From: Eledone cirrhosa
Taxonomy: Eukaryota
NCBI GenBank assembly: GCA_964016885.1
Contig: OZ024740.1
Location: 9,548,001 to 9,612,000, forward strand
Length of the DNA stretch: 64,000 nucleotides
Direction of reading: 5' to 3'
Both the position numbers and the translations under genes were made by a program. Every line of letters begins with the position of its first letter. Position 1 is the stretch's first letter. A model generated the notes under the pieces. That model did no database searches. It was not told the origin of the DNA and worked only from the letters and a program-made list of their open reading frames with translations. This document shows positions 9,697-44,317 of this stretch, piece after piece.

Positions 9697-10702
9697 AGCT
9701 TACTTAAGAATGTAGGATTCACATGCAGCAGCTGTGCTGAAACAGCAAGCAGCAAACAGCCACAGGAAACAAGTACCACCAATCTCTGGGAGGGCCCTGT
9801 AGAAACAGTAGACAGCTTCTGCTACCTAGGTGACCGAATTAGCAACGGAGGTGGGTGTTCAGAAATTACAATAACTAGGGTAAGAACGGGATGGAAGAAG
9901 TTTAGGGAACTACTACCACTGCTAGCTGCAAAAGGCTTCTCCCTCAGAATGAAAGGCAGACTGTATGATGCGTGTATCCGAACAGCGATGTTGCATGGTA
10001 GTGAGACCTGGGCGCTGAAGGTGGAAGACTTACGTAGAATAGAGAGAAACGAAGCCTGCATGCTCCGATGGATGTGTAACAGTAATATACGTGAACGACA
10101 AAGCATTAATGAATTGAGAGAGAGACTGAGCATAAGAGGAATCAAATGCTGTGTACAGGAGAGGTGGTTGCGCTGGTATGAATATGTGATGCGTATGAAG
10201 GATGACAGCTGCATAAAAAGGTGCAGAGCACTAGAAGTTGATGGAAACCGCGGAGTGGGGAGACCCAAGATGACCTGGGATGAGGTGATAAAAGCCGACC
10301 TTACCCAATTACACCTCTCAAAGACAATGACACACGACCGTGACTTCTGGCGTCACGCAGTAATACAGAATACCCGACCTCCCATGGGTACATGCTGAAG
10401 TATATAAACAATATGCCCCCACACCCCCCACCGCAAGGTGGTCGTGGAGGTGGCATGGCAAAAAAGCACCAGACCACACTGTAAAGTGGACGTGTAGGCG
10501 CCACGAAAAAGCACCCAGCATTCACTGTAAATGAGGTTGGTGTTAGGAAGGGCATCCAGCTGTAGAAATCAAGCCAGATCAGTTCCTGTATGAGCAAGGC
10601 ATGGTCAGCCGACCAGACACTGCCCACAACAGAACAACCCGTCTAACCCATGCTAGCGTGGAAGAACGGACGTAAAACGGTGATGATGATGATGATGATG
10701 AT
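9697..10702 (+). mobile_element. 5'-truncated RTE-clade LINE, family A
   Basis: RTE C-terminal ORF (FCYLG...RVRTGWKKFREL...LHGSETW...RWY...GRPKMTW), 3' UTR and (GAT)n tail. Near-identical to 13743-14741. Confidence 0.95.
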
Positions 10703-11666
10703 ATCAGTTTCTATTGGTATATGAGTTTCTATTCGTATGTCAGTTTCTATTGGTTTGTCAGTTTCTATTGGTATGTCAGTTTCGATTGGTATATCAGTTT
10801 CGATTGGTATGTCAGTTTCGATTGGTATGTCAGTTTCGATTGGTATGTCAGTTTCGATTGTTATATTAGTTTCTATTGGTATGTCAGTTTCTATTGGTAC
10901 ATCAGTTTCAATTGGTGTATCAGTTTCAATTGGTATGTCAGTTTCAATTTGTATATCAGTTTCGATTGGTATGTCAGTTTTATTGGTATGTCAATTTCTA
11001 TTGGTATACGAGTTTCAATTGGTATGTCAGTTTCGATTAGTATATCAGTTTCTATTGGTATGTCAGTTTCTATTGGTATATCAGTTTCTTTTGGTATATC
11101 AGTTTTGATTGATATGTCAGTTTCGATTGGTATGTCAATTTCGATTAGTATATCAGTTTCGAATGGTATGTCAGTTTGGATTGTTATATCGGTTTCGATT
11201 AGTATATCAGTCTCAATTGGTATGTCAGTTTCGATTGGCATATCAGTTTTGATTCGTATGTCAGTTTCTATTGGTATATCAGTTTCCATTGGTATATCAG
11301 TTTTGATTAGTATGTCAGTTTCTATTGGTATGTCAGTTTCGATTGGTATGTTAGTCCTCGATTTGTATGTCAGTTTCTGTTGGTATATCAGTTTCAATTG
11401 GTATATCAGTTTCTATTGGTATGTCAGTTTATATTGGTATATCAGTTTCGATCGGTATATCAGTGTCGATTAGTATGTCAGTTTCTATTGGTATGTCAGT
11501 TTCGATTGGTATGTTAGTCCTCGATTTGTATGTCAGTTTCTGTTGGTATATCAGTTTCAATTGGTATGTCAGTTTTGATTAGCATATCAGTTTCTATTTG
11601 TATGTCAGTTTCTATTGGTATATCAGTTTCGATTGGTATATCAGTTTCTATTGGTATATCAGTTTC
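10703..11666. repeat. 18-bp satellite array, segment 2
   Basis: Same 18-mer. Confidence 0.97.
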
Positions 11667-14600
11667 ATTAAACTCAGACTAGTCCTGAATAAGACAATTA
11701 CCACAACAATATCAACTTACGCACCCCAATCGGGGCTGCCAGACGAACTTAAGGATAGGTTTTACGAGTCCCTAATACACACTACTGCTCTAACAGACGA
11801 CAAGGACTTCCTAATCATTGCAGGAGATTTTAACGGACACGTAGGTAAACACTGTGACGGCTTCAATAGAGTACATGGAGGCCATCGAGTTGGCACAAGG
11901 AATGAGGAAGGATTCAGACTTCTAGAATTCTGCGACGCCAATGACATGTCGATATGTAACACAAACTTTAAAAAACCCGACAACCACCTGATCACCTATA
12001 GATCAGGGGAGCACTCTAGTCAGTTAGATTTTATCCTCATCAGAGGACGTGACAGATGGACGGTCGTAAACACAAAAGCCTTCCCTAGTGAGGATTGTAC
12101 ATCCCAACATAGCTTAGTTGTCAGCGACCTCACGGTTAGAACTAGACGAACCCGGAAACAGAGGCCAACCTGGAGAAGAAAGATCTGGAAGCTGAAAGTC
12201 CCCTCAACCAGTAACAGATTTAAAGATATTTTACTCAACGCCTACGTCAGTAAAGAATAACAGATAGAGACATTTAACGTAGAAGAGAACTGGGAGTTCC
12301 TAAAAAATAACTTACTAGAGGCGACGGATGAGGTTTGTGGCTGGAGTAAGACCTCAAGCAGGAGGAGAGTGACTTGGTGGTGGAACAATAAGGTAGATGA
12401 AGCAGTCAAGGCCAAGAGACAGGCATGGAAAGAATGGAAGAACGGGGGGAGCAGGGTACATTACATAGAGACCAAGAGGGAAGCTAGGCGACAAGTATAC
12501 TTAGCTAGGAGGGAAGCAGAGGATAGAAAATTCAAGGATGTTTTACAACGTGAGGACCAGAAACAGGAGGTATTCAAGATTGCGAGGCAGTGTGTCAGAG
12601 ATAGTTGTGATGTCATTGGAGAGAAGTGTATCCGGAATGATAAAGGTGAACTTGCCCTCACAATTGCTGAGAAGAAAGATGCATGGAAGAGTCATTATGA
12701 TAGATTACTAAATGAGGAGAATGCATGGGAAGAAGAGACCCTACCCCATGTAGACCCTATAGAGGGACCAGCAGTACAAGTCAGCGGCAGCGTAGTAAGT
12801 AAGGCAATCAGAGATATGAAGATGGGGAAGGCAACCGGTCCATCGGGTATAGCTGCCGAGATGCTGAAGGCATCTGGGTCTGTAGGTCACACTATAACCA
12901 CACGTATCGTTAACCAGGTAATACTAGAAGGGGCCATACCAAAAGATTGGTGCAGTAGCATCATTGTCAACTGCTACAACGGTAAAGGCGATGCACTAGA
13001 TAGAGGAAACTATAGAGGTATGAAGTTGATGGACCAGGTCATGAAAGTAACAGAAAGAGTTATAGCACAGCTGATTAGGGACCGGGTGAATATAGACGAG
13101 ATGCAATTTGGGTTTGTACCAGGGAAAGGCACCACTGATGCCCTCTTCCTTGTGAGGCAATTACAGGAAAAGTACCTAGCTAAAAGTAAGCCACTCTACT
13201 TGGCATTTGTCGACCTTGAGAAAGCCTTTGACAGAGTTCCACGTGCGGTAATCTGGTGGGCTCTTAGAAAACTAGGAGTAGATGAATGGCTTGTGAAAGC
13301 GGTACAAGCCATGTATAGGGGAGCAGTCAGCAAAGTTAGGATTAGCAATGAGTATAGCGAGGAATTTAGCGTACAGGTTGGGGTCCATCAGGGCTCTGTT
13401 CTTTGCCCTCTCCTGTTCATCATAGTCCTGCAGGCAATAACGGAGGAGTTTAAGACCGGATGCCCATGGGAACTCCTGTATGCTGATGACCTCACACTCA
13501 TACCTGAATCTATGGTAGAACTAGAGAATAAATTCCAAACCTGGAAGCAGGGACTAGAGAGAAAGGGCCTCAAAGTCAACGTGACAAAGACTAAGGTCCT
13601 TGTAAGTAGACGAGAAAACAGAACCCAGATCCCCTCAGGGAAATGGCCTTGCTCAGTATGTAGGAAAGGTGTAGGTAGGAACTCCATTCTCTGCCCCAAA
13701 TGCAAACAATGGGTACACAAGAGATGTAGCGGGATCTCAGGAAGCTTAATTAAGAATGTAGGATTCACATGCAGCAGCTGTGCTGAAACAGCAAGCAGCA
13801 AACAGCCACAGGAAACAAGTACCACCAATCTCTGGGAGGGCCCTGTAGAAACAGTAGACAGCTTCTGCTACCTAGGTGACCGAATTAGCAACGGAGGTGG
13901 GTGTTCAGAAAGTACAATAACTAGGGTAAGAACGGGATGGAAGAAGTTTAGGGAACTACTACCACTGCTAGCTGCAAAAGGCTTCTTCCTCAGAATGAAA
14001 GGCAGACTGTATGATGCGTGTATCCGAACATCGATGTTGCATGGTAGTGAGACCTGGGCGCTGAAGGTGGAAGACTTACGTAGATTAGAGAGAAACGAAG
14101 CCTGCATGTTCCGATGGATGTGTAACAGTAATATACGTGAACGACAAAGCATAAAGGAATTGAGAGAGAGACTGAGCATAAGAGGAATCAAATGCTGCGT
14201 GCAGGTGAGGCGGTTACGCTGGTATGGACATGTGATGCGTATGAAGGATGACAGCTGCATAAAAAGGTGCAGAGCACTAGAAGTTGATGGAAACTGCGGA
14301 GTGGGGAGACCCAAGATGACTTGGGATGAGGTGATAAAAGCCGACCTTACCCAACTACACCTCTCAAAGACAATGACACACGACCGTGACTTCTGGCGTC
14401 ACGCACGCAGTAATACAGGGTACCCGACCTCCCATGGGTACATGCTAAAGCATATAAACAATATGCCCCCACTCCCCCCACCGCAAGGTGGTCGTGGAGG
14501 TGCCACGGCAAAAAAGCACCCAGCCCACACTGTAAAGTGGACGTGTAGGCGCCACGAAAAAGCACCCAGCACTCACTGTAAATGAGGTTGGTGTTAGGAA

Positions 14601-14741
14601 GGGCATCCAGCTGTAGAAATCAAGCAAGATCAGTTCCTGTATGAGCAAGGCAAGGTCAGCCGACCAGACACAGCCCACAACAGGACAACCCGTCTAAACC
14701 ATGTTAGCGTGGAAGAACGGACGTAAAACGGTGATGATGAT
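11667..14741 (+). mobile_element. 5'-truncated RTE-clade LINE, family A (defective)
   Basis: Partial APE (YAPQ, GDFNG, LDFIL), RT (DLEKAFD, GVHQGS, YADD), Cys/His finger and (GAT)n tail. In-frame TAA at 12258-12260 and a 4-bp duplication near 14401. Confidence 0.96.
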
Positions 14742-16263: not shown

Positions 16264-19200
16264 ATTTTAAATATATTTGTTATTATTTCAAACCCTTAAT
16301 TCCCGCTCCCTAATATCGTCTCCACCACACTCTACAACATGCGGTCAACCCCCCCGTCTCTCTCTCTCTCTCTATCCATATACATATATAAGATAAAGTA
16401 ACTCACTTTCGCCAATTCATGGCAGATTCTCTTTCATGGTAAAATGTAACGTACTCATTTTTCTAGCTTTCTAACATCCGCTTATTCCATAGTCCTTCCA
16501 AACCTATTTCCTCCTGTATTTTCCAAAACAAATCTCTTGTATTTTGTCCTGATTGTAAAATACGGAAGTTTTTGGCGTATCTTGCTAAACAAATCTTGTA
16601 TTTTTGTTTACGTTCGTAAAATACTAGGATCTAACTTAAAACTATTCTTCTCGCTAACAACTCAACACCCCTCCCTCCCGCCCCCACGCACCACCATTAT
16701 TATCACGTGGACCAATCATAAGCCAGAGGCCTATACTATCGCTTACCTGGTCGCCTTCGGTATGTAGGATGGAAGGACTACGGAGTTCCGGAGAGTTGAA
16801 GAGAGAAAAATCTGGACGCTCAGCGACAATGCCAAAGTTAAAGACAAACACACCTCGTGGACGAGAATGCGAGCATGCCTCTTTGTTTCGGCCGCGGATG
16901 GCTAACACAACCCCATCTCCCCCCTCTCTCCACCTTTCCCACCCCCCAAACGCAATCCAAAACTTCAGATTTGGTACCTTGAATGTAGGCACCTTAAAGG
17001 GTCGCTCTAACGAGGTTGTAGAAATGCTTGAACGTAAGGAGGTCGATGTTTGTTGTATTCAAGAGACCAGGTGGAGGGGTGGATCTGCTAGATTCATTGT
17101 GGGTAGAAAACGATGCTATAAGCTTTTCTGGGTGGGAAATGACAATGGGCTGGGTGGGGTAGGAATCATGGTAGCAGAAAAGTGGGCAGATAAGATAATA
17201 GACGTAAATAGAGTGAACGACAGAATAGTTAAAATAAGACTTGTCCTCAATAGAACCACGGTGACAGTAATATCCGCGTACGCACCCCAATCCGGACTGC
17301 CCAGCACTATAAAAGACAGATTCTATGAGACACTGATGCTCACTACCTCCCAAATAACCGACAGTGACTATATAATTATTGCAGGCGACCTAAATGGTCA
17401 CGTTGGACAACATTGTAACGGCTACGACGAAATCCATGGAGGCTATGGGTTTGGTACTAGAAATGAGGAAGGCTCCAGAATCCTGGAATTCTGTGACGCA
17501 AATAACCTAACTATCTGCAACACTAACTTAAAAAAACGAGACAATCACTTGATCACCTACAGATCAGGGGAACATACCAGCCAGGTAGATTATATCCTTA
17601 CCAGAAGATGTGACAAAGTGACTGTTGTAAACACTAAATCCCTCCCCCATGAAGAATGCACCTCCCAACATAGACTGATAATTAACGACCTAATAGGCAG
17701 GACGAGACGTACTAGGCAACAGAAGAGGACTACCCTCAGGAGAAAAATATGGAAGCTAAAGGACCCCACAGCCAAAAATAAATTCCAAAGCATATTACTT
17801 GATGCTTTCGACAGTAAGGAAGAGCAAATAGAGTCGTACAAGGTAGAGGAACAGTGGGAATTCCTGAAAGCAAACCTGCTGACGGCGACAGACGAAGTCT
17901 GTGGCTGGAGCAGGCCTGTAGGCAGGAGGAGAGTAACATGGTGGTGGAACAGTAAGGTGGAGGGGTCAATTAAGGCCAAAAAGCAGGCTTGGAAAGTATG
18001 GCGGGATGGGGGAAGCAGAGAAGACTATCAAGTGGCCAGGAGGGAAGCTAGGAGACAAGTGTACTTCGCAAGAAGGGAAGCAGAGGAAAGAAAGTTCAAG
18101 CATGTTCTACAACGTGAGGACCAAAAACGTGAGGTGTTCAGGATTGCTAGGCAATGTGTCAAGGAAAACAGTGATATTGTCGGGGAGAAGTGTGTACTTA
18201 ATGATGACGGCGTACTTGCCATCACCGACGCCGATAAGAAGGTAGCTTGGAAGTGTCACTATGAAAGGCTACTCAATGAGGAGAATAAATGGGAGAAAGA
18301 CAGTCTCCCCCACATCGACCCAATAGAGGGACCAGCAGTGTCAGTCGAGGGTAGTAAAATAAGTAAGGCAATCAAAGATATGAAGACAGGCAAGGCGGCT
18401 GGGCATTCGGAAATAGTTGCCGAGATGCTGAAGGCATCTGGTACGGTGGGACACACCATGGTCACCCGGATAGTCAACCAAGTCATACAGAATGGGGTTG
18501 TTCCGAAGGACTGGCGTAGCAGCATTATCGTTAACTGTTATAAGGGTAAAGGAGATGCCCTAGATAGGAGTAACTATAGAGGCATTAAATTAATCGACCA
18601 GGTCATGAAGGTCACGGAAAAAGTAATAGCGCAACTAATCAGAGAGCGAATTGATCTAGATGAAATGCAGTTCGGGTTTGTGTCAGGAAAAAGTACCACA
18701 GACGCTCTTTTCATTGTACGACAACTACAGGAGAAGTACCTAGCTAAAAGTAAACCCCTATACTTAGCTTTCGTCGACTTGGAGAAGGCCTTCGACAGAG
18801 TCCCCCGTTCCATTATCTGGTGGGCTCTTAGAAAACTAGGTGTCGATGAATGGCTTGTGAGAGCTATACAAGCCATGTATAAAGAAACAGTCAGCAAGGT
18901 TAGAATTAACAACGAATATAGTGAAGAGTTTAGTGTAAAAGTTGGTGTTCATCAGGGCTCTGTTCTTAGCCCCCTACTATTTATTATTGCCCTCCAGGCT
19001 ATAACAGTGGAGTTCAAGACCGGCTGCCCATGGGAACTCCTATACGCAGATGATCTAACACTCATAGCTGAATCAATGGCCGAGCTAGAGAAGAAATTCC
19101 AAACATGGAAGCACGGGCTAGAATCAAAAGGCCTTAAAATTAACCTGGCTAAGACAAAAGTTCTAGTTTGTAAGAAAGAAAATAAGGCGGCGGTTCCCTC

Positions 19201-20370
19201 CGGGAAGTGGCCATGCGCAGAGTGTAGGAAAGGCGTAGGTAGAAATTCCATTTTGTGTCCCAAATGCAAAGTTTGGGTTCATAAAAGATGTAGTGGGATC
19301 ACAGGTAAGCTAACTAAGAACATAGATTTTACATGTGGCCGGTGTTCTGGGGCAATGAGTAGCAGCAAGTGCCCACAAAATACTAGCTCTTTCAACTGCG
19401 CAGAGGGTTCTATAGAAATAGTGGACAGCTTCCGTTACCTGGGTGACAAAACCAGCAGTGGGGGAGGGTGCTCTGAAAGTACAGTAGCTAGAGTCAGAAC
19501 TGGGTGGAAAAAGTTCAGAGAGCTTATACCACTATTAGCCGCTAAAGGGTTCTCCCTAAAAATGAAAGGCAGGCTGTACGATGCCTGCATACGAACAGCA
19601 ATGTTGCATGGCAGTGAGACCTGGGCATTGTGTGCAGAGGATATACGCAGTCTAGAGAGAAATGAAGCTTGCATGCTCCGCTGGATGTGTAATAGTAATA
19701 TACGTGAACGACAAAGCATAAACGAAATAAGAAAAAGATTAGAAATAAGAGGGATCAGATGTTGTTTACTTGAGAGAAGGCTACGTTGGTATGGTCACGT
19801 GATGCGCATGAAGGACGATAGCTGTATAACAAAGTGCAGGGCAATAAAGATAGACGGTAGCCACGGAATAGGCAGACCTAGAAAAACTTGGGACGAGCTG
19901 ATAAACTCCGACCTCACACACTTACACCTCTCCAAGACAATGTCACTGGACCGAGTCCTTTGGCGGTACTCAGTAATAGAGAAGACCCGCCTTACCTAAA
20001 TACAAAGTAAAAACCTACTATAGTCAGTAGGCATCTCTATCAACCCCCCCCCCCGTCCCACAACCTCCACCCCATCCCCACCGCCCCTTCCAATGTAAAG
20101 TTATGTTGGTCCCACAACATCCAGGCCGAAACAAATGAGATCGTGTAGGCGTCACGACAAAAAAACACACAGTTCACGCTGTAATGTGGCCGTGTAGGCA
20201 ACACGGTAAAAACCTCCCAGACCCACACTGTAAATGTGGTTGGTGTTAGGAAGGGCATCCAACTGTAGAAAACCTGCCAGACAGTCCTATGCGAGCAAGA
20301 CAATCACTCTTGCCTCAAGTGGGAAAACCCCCGTCCAAACCCATGCAAGCGTGGAACACGGACGTTAAAC

Positions 20371-20400
<30 letters not shown>
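16264..20400 (+). mobile_element. Apparently full-length RTE-clade LINE, family B
   Basis: About 500 bp of 5' leader, one long ORF, a 3' UTR and a (GAT)10 tail, flanked on both sides by satellite. Confidence 0.95.
16769..19999 (+). CDS. RTE retrotransposon ORF: APE endonuclease + reverse transcriptase + PHD-like zinc finger
   Basis: Uninterrupted 1076 aa. APE motifs: GTLNVGTL, CIQETRW, YAPQ, GDLNG, VDYIL, SQH. RT motifs: DLEKAFD, QGSVLSP, YADD. Finger: CAEC..CPKC....H..C..CGRC. Confidence 0.95.
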   Translation: MEGLRSSGELKREKSGRSATMPKLKTNTPRGRECEHASLFRPRMANTTPSPPSLHLSHPPNAIQNFRFGTLNVGTLKGRSNEVVEMLERKEVDVCCIQETRWRGGSARFIVGRKRCYKLFWVGNDNGLGGVGIMVAEKWADKIIDVNRVNDRIVKIRLVLNRTTVTVISAYAPQSGLPSTIKDRFYETLMLTTSQITDSDYIIIAGDLNGHVGQHCNGYDEIHGGYGFGTRNEEGSRILEFCDANNLTICNTNLKKRDNHLITYRSGEHTSQVDYILTRRCDKVTVVNTKSLPHEECTSQHRLIINDLIGRTRRTRQQKRTTLRRKIWKLKDPTAKNKFQSILLDAFDSKEEQIESYKVEEQWEFLKANLLTATDEVCGWSRPVGRRRVTWWWNSKVEGSIKAKKQAWKVWRDGGSREDYQVARREARRQVYFARREAEERKFKHVLQREDQKREVFRIARQCVKENSDIVGEKCVLNDDGVLAITDADKKVAWKCHYERLLNEENKWEKDSLPHIDPIEGPAVSVEGSKISKAIKDMKTGKAAGHSEIVAEMLKASGTVGHTMVTRIVNQVIQNGVVPKDWRSSIIVNCYKGKGDALDRSNYRGIKLIDQVMKVTEKVIAQLIRERIDLDEMQFGFVSGKSTTDALFIVRQLQEKYLAKSKPLYLAFVDLEKAFDRVPRSIIWWALRKLGVDEWLVRAIQAMYKETVSKVRINNEYSEEFSVKVGVHQGSVLSPLLFIIALQAITVEFKTGCPWELLYADDLTLIAESMAELEKKFQTWKHGLESKGLKINLAKTKVLVCKKENKAAVPSGKWPCAECRKGVGRNSILCPKCKVWVHKRCSGITGKLTKNIDFTCGRCSGAMSSSKCPQNTSSFNCAEGSIEIVDSFRYLGDKTSSGGGCSESTVARVRTGWKKFRELIPLLAAKGFSLKMKGRLYDACIRTAMLHGSETWALCAEDIRSLERNEACMLRWMCNSNIRERQSINEIRKRLEIRGIRCCLLERRLRWYGHVMRMKDDSCITKCRAIKIDGSHGIGRPRKTWDELINSDLTHLHLSKTMSLDRVLWRYSVIEKTRLT

Positions 20401-20401
<1 letters not shown>

Positions 20402-21942
20402 TCAGTTTCTATTGGTATATCGGTTTCAATTGGTATATCAGTTTCGATTAGTATATCAGTTTCGAATGGTATGTCAGTTTTGATTGGTATGTCAGTTTGG
20501 ATTGGTATATCAGTTTCGATTAGTATGTCAGTTTCTATTGGTATATCGGTTTCCATTGGTATATCAGTTTCTATTGGTATATCAGTTTCGATTGGTATAT
20601 CCGTTTCGATTGGTATGTCTATTTCTATTGGTATGTCAGTTTTATTGGTATTTCAGTTTCGATTGGTATATCAGTTTCGGTTGGTATGTCAGTTTCGATT
20701 GGTATATCAGTTTCTATTGGTATATCAGTTTCGATTGGTATGTCAGTTTCTATTTGTATGTTAGTCCTCGATTTGTATGTCAGTTTCTATTGGTACATCA
20801 GTTTCGATTGGTATATCAGTTTCAATTGGTATATTAGTTTCGATTGTTATGTCAGTTTCTATTGGTATATCAGTTTCGATTGACATGTCAGTTTCGATTA
20901 GTATGTCAGTTTCTATTGGTATGTCAGTTTTGACTGGTACATTAGTCCTTGATTTGTATGTCAGTTTCTATTGGTATATCAGTATCGATTGGTATGTCAG
21001 TTTCGATTAGTATATCAGTTTCATATGGTATGTCAGTTTTGATTGGTATGTCAGTTTGGATTGGTATATCAGTTTCGATTAGTATGTCAGTTTCTATTGG
21101 TATATCGGTTTCAATTGGTATATCAGTTTCAATTGGTATGTCACTTTCTAGTGGTATATCAGTTTCTATTGGTATGTCAGTTTTTATTAGTATATCAGTT
21201 TCTATTGATATGTCAGTTTCGATTGGTATGTCAGTTTCTATTGGTATATCAGTTTCGATTGGTATATCCGTTTCGATTGGTATGTCTATTTCTATTGGTA
21301 TGTCAGTTTTATTGGTATGTCAGTTTCGATTGGTATATCAGTTACGGTTGGTATGTTAGTTTCGATTGGTATATCAGTTTCTATTGGTATATCAGTTTCG
21401 ATTGGTATGTCAGGTTCTATTTGTATGTCAGTTTCGATTGGTATATCAGTTTCGATTGGTATGTCAGTTTCGATTGGTCTATCAGTTTCGATTGGTATGT
21501 CAGTTTCGATTGGTATGTCAGTTTCGATTAGTATATCAGTTTCTATTGGTATGTCAGTTTATATTGGTATATCAGTTTCGATTGATATATCAGTATCGAT
21601 TGATATATCAGTTTCTATTGGTATGCCAGTTTCGATTGGTATGTCAATTTCGATTGGTATGTCAGTTTCTATTGGTATATGAGTTTCTATTGGTATGTCA
21701 GTTTCTATTGGTATATGAGTTTCTATTGGTATGTCAGTTTCTATTGGTATGTCAGTTTCTATTGGTATATCAGTTTCTATTGGTATGTCAGTTTCTATTG
21801 GTATGTCAGTTTCTATTGGTATATCAGTTTCTATTGGTATGTCAGTTTCTATTGGTATGTCAGTTTTGATTAGTATGTCAGTTTCTATTGGTATATCAGT
21901 TTCGATTGGTATGTCAGTTTCTATTTGTCTGTCAGTTTCTAT
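20401..21942. repeat. 18-bp satellite array, segment 4 (start of higher-order repeat)
   Basis: Same 18-mer; its rare variants recur at 24.1-25.0 kb and 26.8-27.6 kb. Confidence 0.96.
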
Positions 21943-22396
21943 TGGGGAGACCCAAGATGACTTGGGATGAGGTGATAAAAGCCGACCTTACCCAACTACA
22001 CCTCTCAAAGTCAATGACACACGACCGTGACTTCTGGCGTCACGCAGTAATACAGGGTACCCGACCTCCCATGGGTACATGCTGAAGCATATAAACAATA
22101 TGCCCCCCCCCCCCCCCCCCCCACCGCAAGGTGGTCGTGGAGGTGCCACGGCAAAAAAGCACCCAGCCCACACTGTAAAGTGGACGTGTAGGCGCCACGA
22201 AAAAGCACCCAGCACTCACTGTAAATGAGGTTGGTGTTAGGAAGGGCATCCAGCTGTAGAAATCAAGCCAGATCAGTTCCTGTATGAGCAAGGCATGGTC
22301 AGCCGACCAGACACTGCCCACAACAGGACAACCCGTCTAACCCATGCTAGCGTGGAAGAACGGACGTAAAACGGTGATGATGATGATGATGATGAT
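21943..22396 (+). mobile_element. Short 5'-truncated RTE family A
   Basis: GRPKMTW...PMGTC* followed by the family A 3' UTR and (GAT)n; TGG microhomology at the 5' junction. Confidence 0.95.
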
Positions 22397-25300: not shown

Positions 25301-28300
25301 TTTCTATTGGTATGTCAGTTTCTATTGGGATATCAGTTTCTATTGGTATGTCAGTTTCGATTGGTATGTCAGTTTCGATTAGTATATCAGTTTCTATTGG
25401 TATGTCAATTTCGATTGGTATGTCAGTTTCGATTGGTATATCAGTTTCTATTGGTATGTCAGTTTATATTTGTATATCAGTTGCAATTGGTATGTCAGTT
25501 TCGATTAGTATATCAGTTTCTATTGGTATGTCAGTTTCTATTGGTATGTCAGTTTCTATTGGTATATCAGTTTCTATTGGTATGTCAGTTTTGATTAGTA
25601 TGTCAGTTTCTATTGGTATATCAGTTTTGATTGTTATGTCAGTTTCTATTTGTCTGTCAGTTTCTATTGGTATATCAGTTTCGATTGGTATGTCAGATTC
25701 GATAGGTATATCAGTTTCGATTAGTATGTCAGTTTCAATTGGTATGTCAGTTTCTATTGGTATATGAGTTTCTATTGGTATGTGAGTTTCTATTGGTATG
25801 TCAGTTTCTATTGGTATATCAGTTTCTATTGGTATGTCAGTTTAAATTGGCATGTCAGTTTCGATTAGTATATCAGTTTCTATTGGTAAGTCAGTTTGTA
25901 TTGGTATATCAGTTTCGAATGGTATATCAGTTTCGATTTGTATGTCAGTTTCTATTGGTATATCAGTTTCCATTTGTATATCAGTTTCGATTGGTATGTC
26001 AGTTTCTATTGGTATGTCAGTTTCTATTGGTATGTCAGTTTCTATTGGTATATCAGTTTCGATTGGTATGTCACTTTCTATTGGTATGTCAGTTTCTATT
26101 GGGATATTAGTTTCTATTGGTATGTCAGTTTCGATTGGTATGTCAGTTTCGATTAGTATATCAGTTTCTATTGGTATGTCAATTTCGATTGGTAAGTCAG
26201 TTTCGATTGGTATATCAGTTTCTATTTGTATGTCAGTTTATATTTGTATATCAGTTGCGATTGGTATGTCAGTTTCGATTGGTATATCAGTTTCAATTCG
26301 TATGTCAGTTTCGATTGGTATGTCAATTTCGATTGGTATATCAGTTTCGGTTGGTATGTCAGTTTCGATTGGTATGTCAGTTTCTATTGATATACGAGTT
26401 TCGATTGGTATATCAGTTTCAATTGGTATGTCAGTTTCGATTGGTATGTCAGTTTCTATTGGTATACGAGTTTCGATTGGTATATCAGTTTCGGTTGGTA
26501 TGTCAGTTTCGATTGGTATATCAGTTTCTATTGGTATATCAGTTTCGATTGGTATGTCAGTTTCTATTTGTATGTTAGTCCTCGATTTGTATGTCAGTTT
26601 CTATTGGTACATCAGTTTCGATTGGTCTATCAGTTTCAATTGGTATATTAGTTTCGATTGTTATGTCAGTTTCTATTGGTATATCAGTTTCGATTGACAT
26701 ATCAGTTTCGATTAGTATGTCAGTTTCTATTGGTATGTCAGTTTTGACTGGTACATTAGTCCTTGATTTGTATGTCAGTTTCTATTGGTATATCAGTATC
26801 GATTGGTATGTCAGTTTCGATTAGTATATCAGTTTCATATGGTATGTCAGTTTTGATTGGTATGTCAGTTTGGATTGGTATATCAGTTTCGATTAGTATG
26901 TCAGTTTCTATTGGTATATCGGTTTCAATTGGTATATCAGTTTCAATTGGTATGTCACTTTCTAGTGGTATATCAGTTTCTATTGGTATGTCAGTTTCTA
27001 TTAGTATATCAGTTTCTATTGATATGTCAGTTTCGATTGGTATGTCAGTTTCTATTGGTATATCAGTTTCGATTGGTATATCCGTTTCGATTGGTATGTC
27101 TATTTCTATTGGTATGTCAGTTTTATTGGTATGTCAGTTTCGATTGGTATATCAGTTACGGTTGGTATGTTAGTTTCGATTGGTATATCAGTTTCTATTG
27201 GTATATCAGTTTCGATTGGTATGTCAGGTTCTATTTGTATGTCAGTTTCGATTGGTATATCAGTTTCGATTGGTATGTCAGTTTCGATTGGTCTATCAGT
27301 TTCGATTGGTATGTCAGTTTCGATTGGTATGTCAGTTTCGATTAGTATATCAGTTTCTATTGGTATGTCAGTTTATATTGGTATATCAGTTTCGATTGAT
27401 ATATCAGTATCGATTGATATATCAGTTTCTATTGGTATGCCAGTTTCGATTGGTATGTCAATTTCGATTGGTATGTCAGTTTCTATTGGTATATGAGTTT
27501 CTATTGGTATGTCAGTTTCTATTGGTATATGAGTTTCTATTGGTATGTCAGTTTCTATTGGTATGTCAGTTTCTATTGGTATATCAGTTTCTATTGGTAT
27601 GTCAGTTTCTATTGGTATGTCAGTTTCTATTGGTATATCTGTTTCTATTGGTATGTCAGTTTCTATTGGTATGTCAGTTTTGATTAGTATGTCAGTTTCT
27701 ATTGGTATATCAGTTTCGATTGGTATGACAGTTTCTATTGGTATGTCAGTTTCTATTGGTATGTCAGTTTCTATTGGTATATCAGTTTCTATTGGTATGT
27801 CACTTTCTATTGGTATGTCAGTTTCTATTGGGATATCAGTTTCTATTGGTATGTCAGTTTCGATTGGTATGTCAGTTTCGATTAGTATATCAGTTTCTAT
27901 TGGTATGTCAATTTCGATTGGTATGTCAGTTTCGATTGGTATATCAGTTTCTATTGGTATGTCAGTTTATATTTGTATATCAGTTGCAATTGGTATGTCA
28001 GTTTCGATTAGTATATCAGTTTCTATTGGTATGTCAGTTTCTATTGGTATGTCAGTTTCTATTGGTATATCAGTTTCTATTGGTATGTCAGTTTTGATTA
28101 GTATGTCAGTTTCTATTGGTATATCAGTTTTGATTGGTATGTCAGTTTCTATTTGTCTGTCAGTTTCTATTGGTATATCAGTTTCGATTGGTATGTCAGA
28201 TTCGATAGGTATATCAGTTTCGATTAGTATGTCAGTTTCAATTGGTATGTCAGTTTCTATTGGTATATGAGTTTCTATTGGTATGTGAGTTTCTATTGGT

Positions 28301-29299
28301 ATGTCAGTTTCTATTGGTATATCAGTTTCTATTGGTATGTCAGTTTAGATTGGCATGTCAGTTTCGATTAGTATATCAGTTTCTATTGGTAAGTCAGTTT
28401 GTATTGGTATATCAGTTTCGAATGGTATATCAGTTTCGATTAGTATGTCAGTTTCTATTGGTATATCAGTTTCCATTTGTATATCAGTTTCGATTGGTAT
28501 GTCAGTTTCTATTGGTATGTCAGTTTCTATTGGTATGTCAGTTTCTATTGGTATATCAGTTTCGATTGGTATGTCACTTTCTATTGGTATGTCAGTTTCT
28601 ATTGGGATATTAGTTTCTATTGGTATGTCAGTTTCGATTGGTATGTCAGTTTCGATTAGTATATCAGTTTCTATTGGTATGTCAATTTCGATTGGTAAGT
28701 CAGTTTCGATTGGTATATCAGTTTCTATTTGTATGTCAGTTTATATTTGTATATCAGTTGCGATTGGTATGTCAGTTTCGATTGGTATATCAGTTTCAAT
28801 TCGTATGTCAGTTTCGATTGGTATGTCAATTTCGATTGGTATATCAGTTTCGGTTGGTATGTCAGTTTCGATTGGTATGTCAGTTTCTATTGGTATACGA
28901 GTTTCGATTGGTATATCAGTTTCGATTGGTATGTCAGCTTCTATTGGTATATCAGTTTCTATTGGTATATCAGTTTCTATTGGTATGTCAGTTTCGATGG
29001 TTATGTCAGTTTCCATTGGTATATCAGTTTCGATTGATATATCAGTTTCGATTAGTATGTCAGTTTCTATTGGTATGTCAGTTTCGATTGTTATGTTAGT
29101 CCTCGATTTGTATGTCAGTTTCTGTTGGTATATCAGTTTCAATTGGTATGTCAGTTTTGATTAGCATATCAGTTTCTATTTGTATGTCAATTTCGATTGG
29201 TATATCAGTTTCGGTTGGTATGTCAGTTTCGATTGGTATGTCAGTTTCTATTGGTATACGAGTTTCGATTGGTATATCAGTTTCAATTGGTATGTCAGT
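22397..29299. repeat. 18-bp satellite array, segment 5, with ~2.5-2.7 kb higher-order repeat
   Basis: Near-identical pseudo-ORFs recur at 23223/25852/28355 and at 20949/24134/26763 (offsets 2629, 2503, 3185). Confidence 0.93.
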
Positions 29300-31560
29300 A
29301 AGCAGAGGATAGAAAATTCAAGCAAGCAGAGGATACAAAATTCAAGTATGTTTTACAACGTGAGGACCAGAAACAGGAGGTATTCAAGATTGCGATGCAG
29401 TGTGTCAGAGATAGTTGTGATGTCATTGGAGAGAAGTGTATCCGGAATGATAAAGGTGAGCTTGCCCTCACAAGTGCTGAGAAGAAAGATGCATGGAAGA
29501 GTCATTATGATAGATTACTAAATGAGGAGAATGCATGGGAAGAAGAGACCCTACCCCATGTAGACCCTATAGAGGGACCAGCAGTACAAGTCAGCGGCAG
29601 CGTAGTAAGTAAGGCAATCAGAGATATGAAGATAGGGAAGGCAACCGGTCCATCGGGTATAGCTGCCGAGATGCTGAAGGCATCTGGGTCTGTAGGTCAC
29701 ACTATAACCACATGTATCGTTAACCAGGTAATACTAGAGGGGGCCATAACCAAAAGATTGGTGCAGTAGCATCATTGTCAACTGCTACAAAGGTAAAGGC
29801 GATGCACTAGATAGAGGAAACTATAGAGGTATAAAGTTGATGGACCAGGTCATGAAAGTAAAAGAAAGAGTTATAGCAGAGTTGATTAGGGACCGGGTGA
29901 ATATAGACGAGATGCAATTTGGGTTTGTACCAGGGAAAGGCACCACTGATGCCCTCTTCCTTGTGAGGCAATTACAGGAAAAGTACCTAGCTAAAAGTAA
30001 GCCACTCTACTTGGCATTTGTCGACCTTGAGAAAGCCTTTGACAGAGTTCCACGTGCGGTAATCTGGTGGGCTCTTAGAAAACTAGGAGTAGATGAATGG
30101 CTTGTGAAAGCGGTACAAGCCATGTATAGGGGAGCAGTCAGCAAAGTTAGGATTAGCAATGAGTATAGCGAGGAATTTAGCGTACAGGTTGGGGTCCACC
30201 AGGGCTCTGTTCTTAGCCCTCTCCTGTTCATCATAGTCCTGCAGGCAATAACGGAGGAGTTTAAGACCGGATGCCCATGGGAACTCCTGTATGCTGATGA
30301 CCTCGCACTCATAGCTGAATCTATGATAGAACTAGAGAATAAATTCCAAACCTGGAAGCAGGGACTAGAGAGAAAGGGCCTCAAAGTCAACATGACAAAG
30401 ATTAAGGTCCTTATAAGTAGATGAGAAAACAGAACCCAGATCCCCTCAGGGAAATGGCCTTGCTCAGTATGTAGGAAAGGTGTAGGTAGGAACTCCATTC
30501 TCTGCCCCAAATGCAAACAATGGGTACACAAGAGATGTAGCGGGATCTCAGGAAGCTTAATTAAGAATGTAGGATTCACATGCAGCATCTGTGCTGAAAC
30601 AGCAAGCAGCAAACAGCCACAGGAAACAAGTACCACCAATCTCTGGGAGGGCCCTGTAGAAACAGTAGACAGCTCCTGCTACCTAGGTGACCGAATTAGC
30701 AATGGAGGTGGGTGCTCAGAAAGTACAATAACTAGGGTAAGAACGGGATGGAAGAAGTTTAGGGAACTACTACCACTGCTAGCTGCAAAAGGCTTCTCCC
30801 TCAGAATGAAAGGCAGACTGTATGATGCGTGTATCCGAACAGCGATGTTGCATGGTAGTGAGACCTGGGCGCTGAAGGTGGAAGACTTACGTAGAATAGA
30901 GAGAAACGAAGCCTGCATGTTCCGATGGATGTGTAACAGTAATATACGTGAACGACAAAGCATAAAGGAATTGAGAGAGAGACTGAGCATAAGAGGAATC
31001 AAATGCTGCGTGCAGGAGAGGCGGTTACGCTGGTATGGACATGTGATGCGTATGAAGGATGACAGCTGCATAAAAAGGTGCAGAGCACTAGAAGTTGATG
31101 GAAACCGCGGAGTGGGGAGACCCAAGATGACTTGGGATGAGGTGATAAAAGCCGACCTTACCCAACTACACCTCTCAAAGACAATGACACACGACCGTGA
31201 CTTCTGGCGTCACGCAGTAATACAGGGTACCCGACCTCCCATGGGTACATGCTGAAGCATATAAATAATATGCCCCCACTCCCCCCACCGCAAGGTGGTC
31301 GTGGAGGTGCCACGGCAAAAAAGCACCCAGCCCACACTGTAAAGTGGACGTGTAGGCGCCACGAAAAATCACCCAGCACTCACTGTAAATTTGGTTGGTG
31401 TTAGGAAGGGCATCCAGCTGTAGAAATCAAGCCAGATCAGTTCCTGTATGAGCAAGGCATGGTCAGCCGACCAGACACTGCCCACAACAGGACAACCCAT
31501 CTAACCCATGCTAGCGTGGAAGAACGGACGTAAAACGGTGATGATGATGATGATGATGAT
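29300..31560 (+). mobile_element. 5'-truncated RTE family A (defective)
   Basis: RT region near-identical to 12514-14741. +1 frameshift near 29748, CGA>TGA at 30422, (GAT)n tail. Confidence 0.96.
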
Positions 31561-34500: not shown

Positions 34501-35975
34501 ATTACTATGTCAGTTTCGATTAGCCTATCAGTTTCGATAAGTATGTTAGTTTCTATTGGTATATCAGTTTCGATTGGTATGTCATTTTCGATTGGTATAT
34601 CAGTTTCTATTTGTATATCAGTTTCGATTGGTATGTCAGTTTCGAATTGTATGTCAGTTTCCCTAGGTATATCAGTTTCGATTAGCATGTCAGTTTCGAT
34701 TGGTATATCAGTTTCGATTGGTATGTCAGTTTCGAATCGTATGTCGGTTTCCCTTGGTATATCAGTTTCGATTAGTATGTCAGTTTCAATTGTTATATCA
34801 GTCTTGATTGGTATATCAGTTTCGATTGGTATATCAGTTTCGATTGGTATAACAGTTTCGATTGGTTTGTCAGTTACGATTGGTATATCCGTTTCTATTG
34901 GTATGTCAGTTTCGATTTGTATATCAGTTTCTATTGGTATGTCGGTTCCGATTAGTATGACATTTTAGAATGGCATGTCAGTTTCGATTGGTATGTCAGT
35001 TTCGATTGGTATATCAGTTTCGATTGGTATGTCAGTTTCTATTAGTATGTCAGTTTCTATTGGTATGTTATTTTCGATAGGTATGTCATTTTCGATTGGT
35101 ATATCAGTTTCTATTCGTATATCAGTTTCGCTTAGTATGTCAGTTTCGATTGGTATATCAGTTGATGATGATGATGATGATGATGATGATATCAATTTCG
35201 ATTTGTTATATCAGTTTCTATTGGTATCTCAGTTTTGATTAGTATGTCATTTTCGAATGGTATGTCAGTTTCGATTGGTATGTCAGTTTTGATTGGTATA
35301 TCAGTTTCGATTGGTATATCAGTTTAGATTGATATGTCAGTTTCGATTGGTATATCAGTTTCGATTGGTATATCAGTTTCGATTATTATGTCAGTTTCGA
35401 TTAGTATGTCAGTTTCGATTGCTATATCAGTTTCTATTGGTATGTTAGTTTCAATTAGTATGTCAGTCTTAATTGGTATATCAGTTTCGATTGGTATATC
35501 AGTTTCTATTGGTATGTTAGTTTCGATTGGTATGTCAGTTTCAATTAGTATATCAGTTTCGATTGGTATGTCAGTTTCGATTGGTATATCAGTTTCTATT
35601 GGTATATCAGTTTCGATTAGTATGTCCGTTTCGATTGGTATGTCAGATTTGATTAGTATATCAGTTTCGATTAGTATATCAGTTCTATTGTTATGTCAGA
35701 TTCTATTGGTATGTCCGTTTCGATTAGCATATCAGTTTCGATTACTGTATCAGTTTCGAGTAGTATATCAATTTCGATTGGTATATCAGTTTCGATTAGT
35801 ATATCAGTTTCGATTAGTATGTCAGTTTCGATTGATATGTCAGTTTCGATTGTTATATCAGTTTCGATTGTTATATCAATTTCTATTAGTATGTCAGTTC
35901 CGATTAGTATATCAATTTCGATTACTATATCATTTTCGAGTAGTATATTAATTTCGATTGGTATATCAGTTTCGA
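31561..35975. repeat. 18-bp satellite array, segment 6 (diverged monomeric domain)
   Basis: Same 18-mer but richer in ATTAGT/GAATTGT variants, and the 19-bp marker monomer was not seen. Contains an orphan (GAT)9 at 35164-35190. Confidence 0.95.
35164..35190 (+). mobile_element. Tail-only RTE insertion, (GAT)9
   Basis: GGTATATCAGTT-(GAT)9-ATCAATTTCG: same junction phase as the RTE tails. Confidence 0.6.
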
Positions 35976-36853
35976 TAGAGTCAGAACTGGTTGGAAAAAG
36001 TTCAGAGAGCTTATACCACTATTAGCTGCTAAAGGGTTCTCCCTAAAAATGAAAGGCAGGTTGTACGATGCCTGCATACGAACAGCAATGTTGCATGGTA
36101 GTGAGACCTGGGCATTGTGTGCAGAGGATATACGCAGACTAGAGAGGAACGAAGCTTGCATGCTCCGCTGGATGTGTAACAGTAATATACGTGAACGGCA
36201 AAGCATAAACGAACTAAGGAAAAAATTAGAGATAAGAGGGATCAGATGTTGTTTACTCGAGAGAAGGCTGCGTTGGTATGGACACGTGATGCGCATGAAA
36301 GTCGATAGCTGTATTACAAAGTGCAGGGCAATAAAGATAGACGGTAGCCACGGAATAGGCAGACCTAGAAAAACATGGGATGAGCTGATAAACTCCGACC
36401 TCACACACTTACACCTCTCCAAGACAATGTCACTGGACCGTGACCTTTGGCGGTACTCAGTAACAGAGAAGACCCGCCTTGCCAGTAGGCATCTCTAACA
36501 AAATACACCCCTCCCGCCGCCACCCCCACCCCATCCACACCACCCCGTTCTATGTAAAGTTATGTTGGTGCCGCGCCATCCAGGCCGAAACAAATGAGAT
36601 CGTGTAGGTGTCACGACAAAAAAACACACAGTCCACGCTGTAATGTGGCCGTGTAGGCAACACGGTAAAAACCTCCCAGACCCACACTGTAAATGTGGTT
36701 GGTGTTAGGAAGGGCATCCAACTGTAGAAAACCTGCCAGACAGTCCTATGCGAGCAAGACAATCACTCTTGCCTCAAGTGGGACTACCCCCGTCCAAACC
36801 CATGCAAGCGTGGAACACGGACGTTAAACGTTGATGATGATGATGATGATGAT
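35976..36853 (+). mobile_element. 5'-truncated RTE family B
   Basis: Matches 19489-20400; (GAT)n tail followed by GTCAGTTTCG. Confidence 0.95.
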
Positions 36854-37188
36854 GTCAGTTTCGATTAGTATTTCAGTTTCGTTTCGTATATCAGTTTCGA
36901 TTGGTATGTCAGTTTCGATTAGTATGTCAGTTTCGATTAGTATGTCAGTTTCGATTGGTATATAAGATTTTGATTGGTATATCCGTTTCGATTGGTATGT
37001 CAGTTTCTATTGGTATATCAGTTTCTATTGGTATGTCAGTTTCGATTGGTATATCAGTTTCGATTAGTATGTCAGTTTCGATTAGTATGTCAGTTTCGAT
37101 TAGTATGTCATTTTCGATTGGTATATAAGATTTTGATTGGTATATCCGTCTCGATAAGTATGTCAGTTTCAATTGGTATATCAGTTAC

Positions 37189-37304
37189 ATGAGAAAACCC
37201 GCCAGACAGTCCTATGTGAGCAAGACAACCACTCTAGCCTCAACTGGGAAAACTCCCGTCCAAACCCATGCGAGCGTGGAATATGGACGTTGAACGATGA
37301 TGAT
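37189..37304 (+). mobile_element. Tiny diverged 3' end of RTE family B
   Basis: Matches the family B terminal ~110 nt. The rare variant TCAGTTAC lies on both sides, consistent with a target-site duplication. Confidence 0.9.
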
Positions 37305-37486
37305 GTCAGTTACGATTGGTATATCATTTTCGATTGGTATGTCAGTTTCTATTGGTATATCAGTTTCTATTGGTATATCAGTTTCTATTGGTATATCAGT
37401 TTCTATTGGTATATCAGTTTCGATTGGTATATTAGTTTCGATTTGTATATCAGTTTCTATTGTTATGTCAGTTTCAATTAGTATGT

Positions 37487-37838
37487 GCGTGAACGACCCA
37501 GCATAAATGTGTTGAGAGAGAAACTGTGTCTGAGAGGAATAGAATGTAGTGTACGGGAGAGGAGACTGTGGTGGTATGGACATGTGATGCGCATGGAGGA
37601 TGACCGATGGGTGAAGAAGTGCCAGGAAATGCCAGTTGAGGGACGACGTGGTAGAGGTAGACCACGAAAAACATGGGCGGAGGTGGTGAGAACAGACCTC
37701 AGATCATTGAAGCTCACGGTGGAGATGACGAGGGACCGTGACGAGTGGAGAGATGCTGTGCTGAATAAGACCCGTCCCACCCTTGCAAGCAGGGAAAAGC
37801 AGACGTAAAATGATGATGATGATGATGATGATGATGAT
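37487..37838 (+). mobile_element. 5'-truncated RTE, third family (C)
   Basis: RERRLWWYGHVMRM...GRGRPRKTW...KTRP. The stop codon is followed almost directly by (GAT)n, and the sequence is distinct from A and B. Confidence 0.9.
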
Positions 37839-38016
37839 GTCAGTTTCGATTGGTATCTCAGTTTCGATTGGTATATCAGTTTTGATTAGTATATCAGTTT
37901 AGATTGATATGTCAGTTTCAATTGTTATATCAGTTTCGATTAGTATGTCAGTTTCGATTAGTATATCAGTTTCGATCAGTATATCAGTTTCGATTGGTAT
38001 TTCAGTTTCGATTGGT

Positions 38017-39265
38017 ATCATCATCATCATCATCGTTTAACGTCCATGTTCCACGCTTGCATGGATTTGGACGGGAGTTTTCCCACTTGAGGCAAGAGTG
38101 GTTGTCTTGCTCTCATACGACTGTTTGGCAGGTTTTCTACAGCTTGATGATGCCCTTCGTAACACCAACCACATTTACAGTGTGGGACTGGGAGGTTTTT
38201 ACCGTGTTGCCTACACGGCCACATTACAGCGTGGACTGTGTGTTTTCTTGTCGTGACACCTACACTATCTCATTTGTTTCGGCCTGGATGTTGTGGCACC
38301 AACGTAACTTTACATTGAAAGGGGCGGTGTGGATGGGGTGGTGGTGGTGTGATGGGGGCGTATTTTGTTAGAGATGCCTACTGACTGTAGTAGGTTTACT
38401 TTGTATTTAGGCAAGGCGGGTCTTCTCTATTACTGAGTACCGCCAAAGCTCTCGGTCCAGTGACATTGTCTTGGAGAGGTGTAAGTGTGTGAGGTCGGAA
38501 TTTATCAGCTCGTCCCAGGTTTTTCTGGGTCTGCCTACTCCGTGGCTACCGTCTATCTTTATTGCCCTGCACTTTTTTATACAGCTGTCGTCTTTCATGC
38601 GCATCACGTGACCATACCAACGTAGCCTTCTCTCAAGTAAACAACATCTGATCCCTCTTATTTCTAATTTTTCCCTTAGTTCGTTTATGCTTTGCCGTTC
38701 ACGTATATTACTATTACACATTCAGCGGAGCATGCATGCTTCGTTCCTCTCTAGTCTGCGTATATCCTCTGCACACAATGCCCAGGTCTCACTGCCATGC
38801 AACATTGCTGTTCGTATGCAGGCATCATACAACCTGCCTTTCATTTTTAGAGAGAACCCTTTAGCGGCTAATAGTGGTATAAGCTCTCTGAACTTTTTCC
38901 ATCCAGTTCTGACTCTAGCTACTGTACTTTCAGAGCACCCTCCCCCACTGCTGATTTTGTCACCCAGGTAACGGAAGCTGTCCACTATTTCTATAGAACC
39001 CTCTGCGCAATTGAAAGAGCTAATATTATTAGTGTGAACTTGCTGCTACTTATTGCACCAGAGCACCGGCCATATGTAAAATCTATGTTCTTAGTTAGCT
39101 TACCTGTGATCCCACTACATCTTTTATGCACCCATACTTTGCATTTGGGACATAAAATGAAGTTTCTACCTACGCCTTTCCTACACACTGAGCATGGCCA
39201 TTTCCCAGAAGGGACCGGCGCCTTATTTTCTTTCCTACAAACTAGAACTTTAGTCTTAGCCAGGT
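38017..39265 (-). mobile_element. 5'-truncated RTE family B in reverse orientation
   Basis: (ATC)n at left, reverse-complement match to ~19143-20400, TGG>TGA stop at 38722, GGT microhomology at the right junction. Confidence 0.95.
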
Positions 39266-39784: not shown

Positions 39785-39935
39785 AAATATTAAAGAAAGT
39801 TTCTTCCTACATTCTATGGCAGTTAAAACGTGAATTTTCCCTCAAAATCTCTTCTCATGTATATGAAGGTGGGGTGGTGGAAGGCGGTTCAATAGATCAG
39901 GGTTCAACTGATTAACTCACACGTCTATCTATCCA

Positions 39936-44019: not shown

Positions 44020-44317
44020 GCAGAGCTTCTTCTTCTCCGAATTGACAGAACACAGCTCCGATACTGTGGCATGTGGTTAGAATGTCTCAGGAAAGAATCA
44101 CAGGACAGATTTTATGGATAAAAACCAACCAAGAGGAGACCCAAGGGGAGACCTTGAGCAAGATGGTTGACCCTCCTTGGCTGGGTCCCACTTGGGGATC
44201 CAGCCGGATCGGTTGGAGATGGTTGCTTCTGACAGGACCTGCTGGAAGGAGTGGTTGAGGACTCTGACCCCACGATTCCCTCCGGAATAAGTGGAAGAAG
44301 AAGAAGAAGAAGAAGAA
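44020..44317 (+). mobile_element. Old RTE-like LINE 3' relic with (GAA)n tail
   Basis: LLLRIDRTQLRYCG/VVRMSQERI...PKGRP resembles an RTE C-terminus (frameshifted); ends in (GAA)n. Confidence 0.6.

Follow-up and report, generated by a model that had tools for sequence, protein, structure and literature searches.

The window analysed here, a stretch of 64,000 nucleotides of contig OZ024740.1 (positions 9,548,001 to 9,612,000, forward strand), opens with a long array of an 18-bp satellite interrupted by long interspersed nuclear elements (LINEs), all plus-strand copies of which join the satellite at the same position of its monomer. The best explanation, to which a probability of roughly 0.72 is assigned, is that these are independent insertions of three (GAT)n-tailed LINE families encoding an apurinic/apyrimidinic-type endonuclease (APE) and a reverse transcriptase (RT), which share one phase since the monomer carries the published insertion signal of RTE elements, Tn-TA, a single time and on just one of its strands. 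On this view the periodic target displays an RTE insertion rule that is already known, and no new sequence-specific lineage is revealed. The Tn-TA signature, described for plant and for reptile and ruminant RTEs, has two separate parts, a T^A cleavage site (T at P-1 and A at P1, with ^ marking the junction) and, about 10 nt or one turn of the helix upstream of it, a T-stretch (TTT near P-10), and in this model the tail of the element influences the first base (PMC6007223, PMC13295347; all papers are cited here for the parts of their text that were available).

The satellite between the insertions amounts to 26,227 bp, about 1,400-1,460 monomers, and continues past the left edge of the window, while LINE sequence makes up 13,550 bp, or one third, of the array span. 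Near-perfect internal duplications of 2.5-5.8 kb are present in the array, and at 20655-29299 such higher-order duplications occur at offsets of 2503, 2593, 2629, 3185, 5132 and 5814 bp. A 19-bp variant monomer recurs across the left 29 kb. No description of the satellite in octopus was found in the literature, the scope of which, here and below, excludes most subscription papers and Repbase. Masking of the satellite leaves ten long interruptions, nine with an element body and one a bare (GAT)9 tract, within a few bases of the places where the initial annotation had put ten insertions. The array and its insertions are as follows.

1-39777, plus strand: 18-bp satellite TCAGTTTC[G/T]ATTGGTAT[G/A], the first 39.8 kb of the window.
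9697-10702, plus strand: i1, a 5'-truncated family A copy whose (GAT)n tail meets ATCAG, with microhomology of 1 nt at the 5' end.
11667-14741, plus strand: i2, the longest family A copy, beginning within the endonuclease; stop at 12258-12260.
16264-20400, plus strand: i3, a family B copy of nearly full length (4.1 kb), with one open reading frame (ORF) and a 5' region of about 0.5 kb.
21945-22396, plus strand: i4, a short family A copy that left no target duplication and deleted 1 bp of its target.
24860-25110, plus strand: empty-site paralogue of i4 in a duplicated array block; target TTTCTATTGGT^ATATCAG, P1 at 24988.
29300-31560, plus strand: i5, a family A copy whose 5' end bears a tandem duplication of 24 bp.
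35163-35190, plus strand: i6, (GAT)9 tract only, in the same phase and with no element body.
35977-36853, plus strand: i7, family B; putative 4-bp target deletion.
37189-37304, plus strand: i8, family B, 116 bp; the rare variant TCAGTTAC on either side.
37487-37838, plus strand: i9, family C.
38017-39262, minus strand: i10, family B, the sole minus-strand copy; tail joins at T^ATACC.

Mutual identity is 95.6-97.9% within family A (i1, i2, i4, i5) and 88.5-93.3% within family B (i3, i7, i8, i10); A and B are about 75-78% identical to each other, and the coding part of family C (i9) is 66-76% identical to both, which bears out the earlier count of at least three families. The bare tract i6 is likely a tail-only insertion to which no family can be assigned. 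All copies carry (GAT)3-10 tails; i3 has a 3' stem-loop and a tail of (GAT)10 joined to GTCAG. A nested 3' hairpin is common to A, B and C, with z-scores of only -1.5 to -0.07.

The tails of all nine plus-strand insertions end (GAT)n-[A/G]TCA[G/A]TT and so join the monomer at T^AT[A/G]TCA, as had been claimed; the chance of a single phase out of 18 is about 1e-10. Given T^AT sites only, the presence of nine out of ten insertions in the used class still has p=0.0014, and T^A alone is thereby ruled out as the determinant. In the monomer, TTT lies at P-11 to P-9 of the used T^A, and the empty site of i4 has TTT at P-11 to P-9, T at P-1 and A at P1. T^A together with TTT about 10 nt upstream is found at nine of the ten array insertions, i10 having the T^A only. 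One such Tn-TA site is present per monomer, on the plus strand, giving 1289 plus-strand and 0 minus-strand sites in the array (under four other window definitions, 0-86 on the minus strand versus 1242-2089 on the plus strand). That the monomer holds the signal exactly once and on a single strand likely accounts for the single phase, and the confinement of Tn-TA sites to the plus strand for the 9:1 strand bias of the insertions (two-sided p=0.021). The T^AT sites without a T-stretch, 547 of the minus-strand GAT^ATACC type and 539 TCT^ATTGG, received one and none of the ten insertions, respectively. With wider windows a neighbouring TAT^ATC site 2 nt away qualifies too, and the family A junctions fit both. 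The nick position is less exact than the initial annotation had it, being ambiguous by 2 nt in monomers ending in A (GGT^ATATCAG or GGTAT^ATCAG).

Pairing with the tail cannot by itself account for the choice of site. At the used site the tail matches AT or ATG, the 3-nt ATG being available in 640 places versus 628 for GATT[G/A], and the longest tail match, the 4-nt TGAT, occurs in 548 places on the minus strand and is unused; tail microhomology alone is ruled out since the best match lies on the unused strand. It had been argued that most monomers hold a perfect GAT, which would be the best microhomology for the tail. This was too generous on both counts, as the GAT (a G at monomer position 9) is present in about half, 51.7% of 1401 parsed monomers, and the ATG at the used site is equally long and the minus-strand TGAT better. 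Target-primed insertion, in which an endonuclease preference at T^A rather than tail pairing alone fixes the 3' junction, is on the other hand supported. The base after the tail is A in 4/4 family A copies and G in 4/4 plus-strand copies of families B and C (Fisher p=0.029, post hoc; 0.048 including i10), which may be due to chance or to a 2-nt difference in nick choice.

By analogy with published RTE work, the ORF protein would bind the T-stretch (TTT at P-11 to P-9) and, a helical turn from there, nick the bottom strand across from T^A. Reverse transcription would then be primed by the 3' end so released, after this has paired with the (GAU)n RNA tail over 2-3 nt (AT or ATG), and at the 5' end 1-3 nt of microhomology would make the joint, leaving either a short duplication or a minor loss of target. 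In this scheme the satellite acts as a dense stock of ordinary preferred sites, in which insertions are probably also tolerated.

The insertions are separate events, as seen from their differing flanks and the empty twin of i4. The right flanks are alike for just 3-19 bp from the junction. A search for empty sites over the ten insertions was clear for i4, suggestive for i7 and uninformative for the others; the twin of i4 at 24988 has 1 mismatch in 120 bp on each side, and because this empty twin exists, i4 must have inserted after a duplication within the array. The target deletion of i4 is one T, or up to 4 bp if a TGG microhomology is counted, and i7 likely carries a deletion of 4 bp, to judge from a weaker paralogue with 8 mismatches in 120. 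A true target duplication of 8 bp, or of 11 bp with one mismatch, surrounds i8, where it is marked by TCAGTTAC, a rare variant with 13 occurrences across the array; as this copy differs from its relatives by about 9%, the mismatch beside the tail calls for no mechanism of its own. For most insertions, duplication and deletion are ambiguous modulo 18 in a tandem array. The 5' joints show 1-3 nt of microhomology, the exceptions being i8 (three extra bases) and i5 (the 24-bp duplication), and the flanks of i5 derive from two different array regions. A single event multiplied by duplication is ruled out by the flanks, the empty twin of i4, the duplication at i8, the three families and the use of both strands; the copies are not segmental duplicates of one event, just as the initial annotation had held.

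Copy i3 of family B holds an intact ORF.

16769-19999, plus strand: intact 1076-amino-acid ORF of i3, with Exo_endo_phos and RVT_1 matches and a PHD-like finger.

The endonuclease occupies amino acids 70-305 of this ORF, with the catalytic residues N72, E99, Y171, D207, N209, D274 and H301, the residue Q300 and a 4-residue hairpin, while the reverse transcriptase extends over amino acids 600-800 with YADD at 759. Directly after the RT core lies a C4HC3 PHD-like finger (amino acids 816-859, window 19214-19345), which scores 23.2 bits in i3, just below the Pfam cut-off of 24, and 26.1 bits in i2, above it; 115 of the 120 top homologues retain the full C4HC3 pattern. No PHD finger within an RTE ORF was found described in the literature, PHD being absent from the available text of PMC11203168, PMC5850137 and PMC10294476. 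The seven catalytic positions of the endonuclease are all kept in 97-99 of 99 aligned rows. Its hairpin is 2 residues shorter in the alignment than that of L1 and has 4 residues in 108 of the 120 homologues (12 are unmatched by the pattern), and Q replaces D229 in 97 of the 99 rows. Family B has the hairpin TYRSGEHTSQVD and TSQH, with an equal pattern in family A, and the named plant matches show the short loop in 6/6 and the Q in 5/6. Both the hairpin and the PHD assignments are sequence-based. The architecture of APE, RT and finger is widespread, 916 of 8000 scored candidates passing an E value of 0.001, the best with 43-53% identity, and a protein scan of genome contigs found no relative. 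Some relatives (P0013, P0074 and loci L039-L056) sit in entries assigned to bacterial or archaeal bins, where they are likely contamination from a host.

Families A, B and C likely belong to the RTE clade, an assignment that draws on the single ORF, the microsatellite tail and the named endonuclease matches, not on phylogeny. The endonuclease matches are craniofacial development protein 2-like proteins (Octopus, Mercenaria, Vanessa) or plant proteins at 41-46%, the former name presumably marking RTE-type endonucleases. A single ORF holds the APE endonuclease and the RT, with no ORF1; in i3, the 5' end of which is putative, no second ORF of at least 150 amino acids is present in the 0.5 kb upstream of the 1076-amino-acid ORF. 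The 3' end consists of short tandem repeats and not of poly(A), a feature given for RTEs (PMC5850137). In a tree of the endonuclease, A and B group with the Octopus matches (100/100).

Two copies lie outside the array, and a profile search of the 24 kb beside it found no others.

44316-44545, plus strand: 3' end belonging to a related (GAT)-tailed family, located outside the satellite and running into a degenerate GAT-type microsatellite; the nested 3' hairpin of A, B and C was not found in it.
56000-56479, plus strand: a 95%-identical copy of family A that lies in an (AT)n tract beyond the satellite, with its tail junction reading GAT-ATATATAAT.

The ten insertions in 26.2 kb of satellite versus two in about 23 kb beside it are an excess per bp (p=0.031, or 0.050 without i6). 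Tn-TA sites are, however, 3.8 times denser in the array than in adjacent DNA, and no excess is left when insertions are counted per Tn-TA site (p=0.58, with a range of 0.23-0.88 under five definitions). The enrichment in the satellite that the initial annotation had expected is hence seen within the window per bp but not per site.

Beyond the window, 841 bp of family B were matched by 31,342 of 16.5 million contigs (run X6) and by 378,198 of 12.5 million reads (run X12), in a mapping that covered the family B 3' end in 4 of the 14 listed runs and excluded 20364-20440 (tail and flank); the read depths are not copy numbers and do not locate copies, and the runs may be from this species or a relative. 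By these reads the lineage is abundant and diverse. In run X12 the match to family B ends at 19731-19741 for about 95,000 reads, which continue in AT-rich sequence of mixed composition (agreement 0.34-0.51) and may represent other families or a short derivative that is non-autonomous. In other organisms, 59 related loci were compared, none of which shows a satellite match. At 17 of them a matching ORF lies upstream, by a same-strand tblastn match upstream of the tail (the matches of L034, L039 and L051 are untied to the tail, and the others have no match), and these 17 have 17 different flanks; two flanks continue as degenerate GAT microsatellite, four hold short 2-4-copy repeats and one is 10 bp long. 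Three candidate target-site duplications in the wider locus set are chance matches in non-LINE DNA. RTE-BovB-type LINEs are reported to be greatly expanded in cephalopods (PMC10294476, PMC13282606).

Among the other explanations for the shared phase, a compact local motif (like GT^AT[A/G]) preferred by the endonuclease, with tail pairing setting the register and the TTT at P-10 being coincidental, is unlikely. Both i10 and the copy at 56000 join at T^ATA without a clear T-stretch, and ATG offers 3-nt pairing in about half of the monomers, as this motif would lead one to expect; yet T^AT alone leaves the 9/10 concentration in one class at p=0.0014, and the TTT lies at exactly the published distance in elements whose endonuclease has the features of Tn-TA RTEs. 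Even less can be said for a turnover of the array in which copying or conversion multiplied one or two old insertions, with truncation afterwards. The near-perfect array duplications, the base after the tail that follows the family and the unlike flanks joined by i5 would suit such a history, which is nevertheless very improbable in view of right flanks that agree over so few base pairs, the three families, the use of both strands, the empty twin of i4 and the true duplication of a rare variant at i8, and which is largely refuted for i4, i8 and i10.

Another alternative is true targeting, i.e. a lineage that favours the satellite beyond its motif density, via a longer endonuclease site or a PHD-like finger reading satellite chromatin. 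The excess per bp, the one third of the array span that is LINE, the C4HC3 finger kept in nearly all homologues and the precedent of L1-CS in the Cuscuta satellite CUS-TR24 (PMC8091179) are in its favour, but such targeting appears distinctly improbable, as a 95%-identical family A copy is found outside the array, the excess vanishes per Tn-TA site and relatives elsewhere have unrelated flanks. Moreover, the finger is lineage-wide and not linked to the satellite, the use of one site by three families as far apart as 66-78% fits a clade-wide rule, and the insertions are concentrated at the more diverged array edge (the final 4.6 kb hold five of the ten, the initial 9.7 kb none), suggesting accumulation with age. 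A specific form of this idea, in which the PHD finger of a widespread animal RTE lineage reads satellite heterochromatin, resulting in chromatin-guided, Tn-TA-phased safe-harbour integration beyond site density, is a similarly long shot, and no RTE example of it was found in the literature. Satellite-specific targeting is not needed as an explanation. The initial annotation had taken RTEs to be generally non-specific and had proposed a lineage using the satellite as a safe harbour; neither is supported, the former in view of the published Tn-TA signature, which the satellite matches exactly, and the latter in view of the copies outside the array and a local excess that is matched by Tn-TA site density. 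Its observation of a fixed phase holds, whereas its interpretation was partly supported and overstated.

Several points weigh against the explanation by Tn-TA sites. The nine plus-strand sites are copies of one motif and thus constitute one match, not nine, and any other feature of the shared motif, e.g. [G/A]GT^AT[A/G]TCA, fits no less well than Tn-TA. The T^A site of i10 has no T-stretch upstream, and at neither outside copy, one in an AT tract and the other beside a degenerate microsatellite, is a Tn-TA site readable. The enrichment test comprises 12 insertions, with two outside copies in 24 kb, and is weak in both directions; the junctions of A, B and C are known from this one window. Published RTE duplications are 7-15 bp long, while here only that of i8 is well supported and i4 has a deletion, and no target-site duplication of at least 9 bp was present in 39 tail matches of 38 metagenome loci. 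As regards the clade, the tree has 31 rows of the endonuclease only, with no labelled RTE reference and a single outgroup on a very long branch.

Among known systems, SART/TRAS, R1 and Tx1 are APE LINEs with two ORFs that are confined to their target and inserted at a fixed phase of a tandem repeat set by the APE endonuclease. The fixed phase is shared by the elements described here, which differ in having one ORF and same-family copies outside the repeat; with copies at 56000 and 44316, no confinement to a target repeat is seen. The Tn-TA RTEs (legume RTE-1_GM and RTE1_MT, Bov-B and the Sauria SINE; PMC6007223, PMC13295347) are closer, sharing a single APE and RT ORF of about 1,000-1,100 amino acids, a microsatellite tail, the T^A junction with TTT about 10 nt upstream and, as in plant RTEs, the short hairpin and Q229. 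Unlike them, the present families have an invertebrate, likely octopod, host, a (GAT)n tail, a PHD-like finger after the RT and short duplications or deletions in place of duplications of 7-15 bp. The short hairpin and Q229 were reported solely in plant RTEs in the available text of PMC6007223, whereas here both run through an animal lineage. The taxonomic range of Tn-TA is left open in the accessible parts of PMC13295347, and no description of Tn-TA or of a target preference in molluscs or cephalopods was found.

The octopus RTEs (RTE-2_OV and the RTE of O. bimaculoides; PMC9115989) likely come from the same host group and have in common with A, B and C, by description only, a high copy number and a single ORF with endonuclease, RT and zinc finger, RTE-2_OV differing in its C2H2 finger and a 3' untranslated region that is mostly microsatellite. 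The polymorphic O. bimaculoides RTE lies on many scaffolds and is intronic in 24 of 54 PASS rows (of 55), as detected by an insertion caller that would miss insertions within repeats, and its 18 split-read calls comprise nine duplications of 1-11 bp, six deletions and three blunt joints (PMC9115989). A parallel to the arrangement as such is L1-CS in the satellite CUS-TR24 of Cuscuta europaea, where many independent and diverse LINE insertions occupy fixed monomer positions, explained by an ordinary cleavage consensus lying in the monomer. L1-CS differs, however, in belonging to the L1 clade of a plant, in using two sites per monomer and in that 91% of its elements are satellite-associated genome-wide, while the RTEs of the same genome are dispersed, with 14% satellite-associated (PMC8091179).

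The remainder of the window contains further repeats and one gene. The sequence at about 39860-40430, directly after the 18-bp array, resembles by eye the 3' end (53500-53914) of a two-ORF LINE listed below, and directly upstream of the 44316 copy, at about 44020-44318, what looks by eye like the 3' end of a further LINE carries a (GAA)n tail. SINE-like (short interspersed nuclear element) repeat copies at about 45646, 46650, 46985 and 47300 are preceded by (ATT)/(ATC) tracts.

40992-42109: foldback or MITE-like (miniature inverted-repeat transposable element) element, with terminal inverted repeats of about 210 bp (97-100% complementary pieces) enclosing 34-bp tandem units.
44814-45476, plus strand: a long exon encoding a short-chain dehydrogenase that resembles retinol dehydrogenase 14; its 75% identity to the Octopus bimaculoides protein points to a probable octopod host.
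46023-46363: 57-bp tandem repeat, six units.
48272-53914, plus strand: two-ORF LINE, with a 397-amino-acid upstream ORF and a 1077-amino-acid APE and RT ORF at 50223-53456.
58452-60596 and 62486-63815, minus strand: two decayed Penelope-like elements, by reading; RT match for the first, no Pfam match for the second.

A reading of its sequence suggests that the two-ORF LINE is Tx1/L1-like. It is flanked on both sides by a 72-bp minisatellite (47921-48271 and 53915-54460). Tx1-type elements are often target-specific, and the case for repeat targeting may be stronger for this LINE than for those of the 18-bp satellite.

The array can be regarded as a natural experiment, in which one monomer sets a T^A that has a T-stretch beside others that lack it, with tail matches ranging from 2 to 4 nt, and the T-stretch site wins in nine of ten cases. 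It also carries a caution, in that a fixed phase in a satellite is alone no proof of sequence-specific targeting. With an intact 1076-amino-acid ORF and an 18-mer substrate at hand, the proposed Tn-TA mechanism is directly testable. Plant RTEs are not alone in having the short hairpin and Q229, and the finding likely extends the Tn-TA rule of RTEs to a mollusc.

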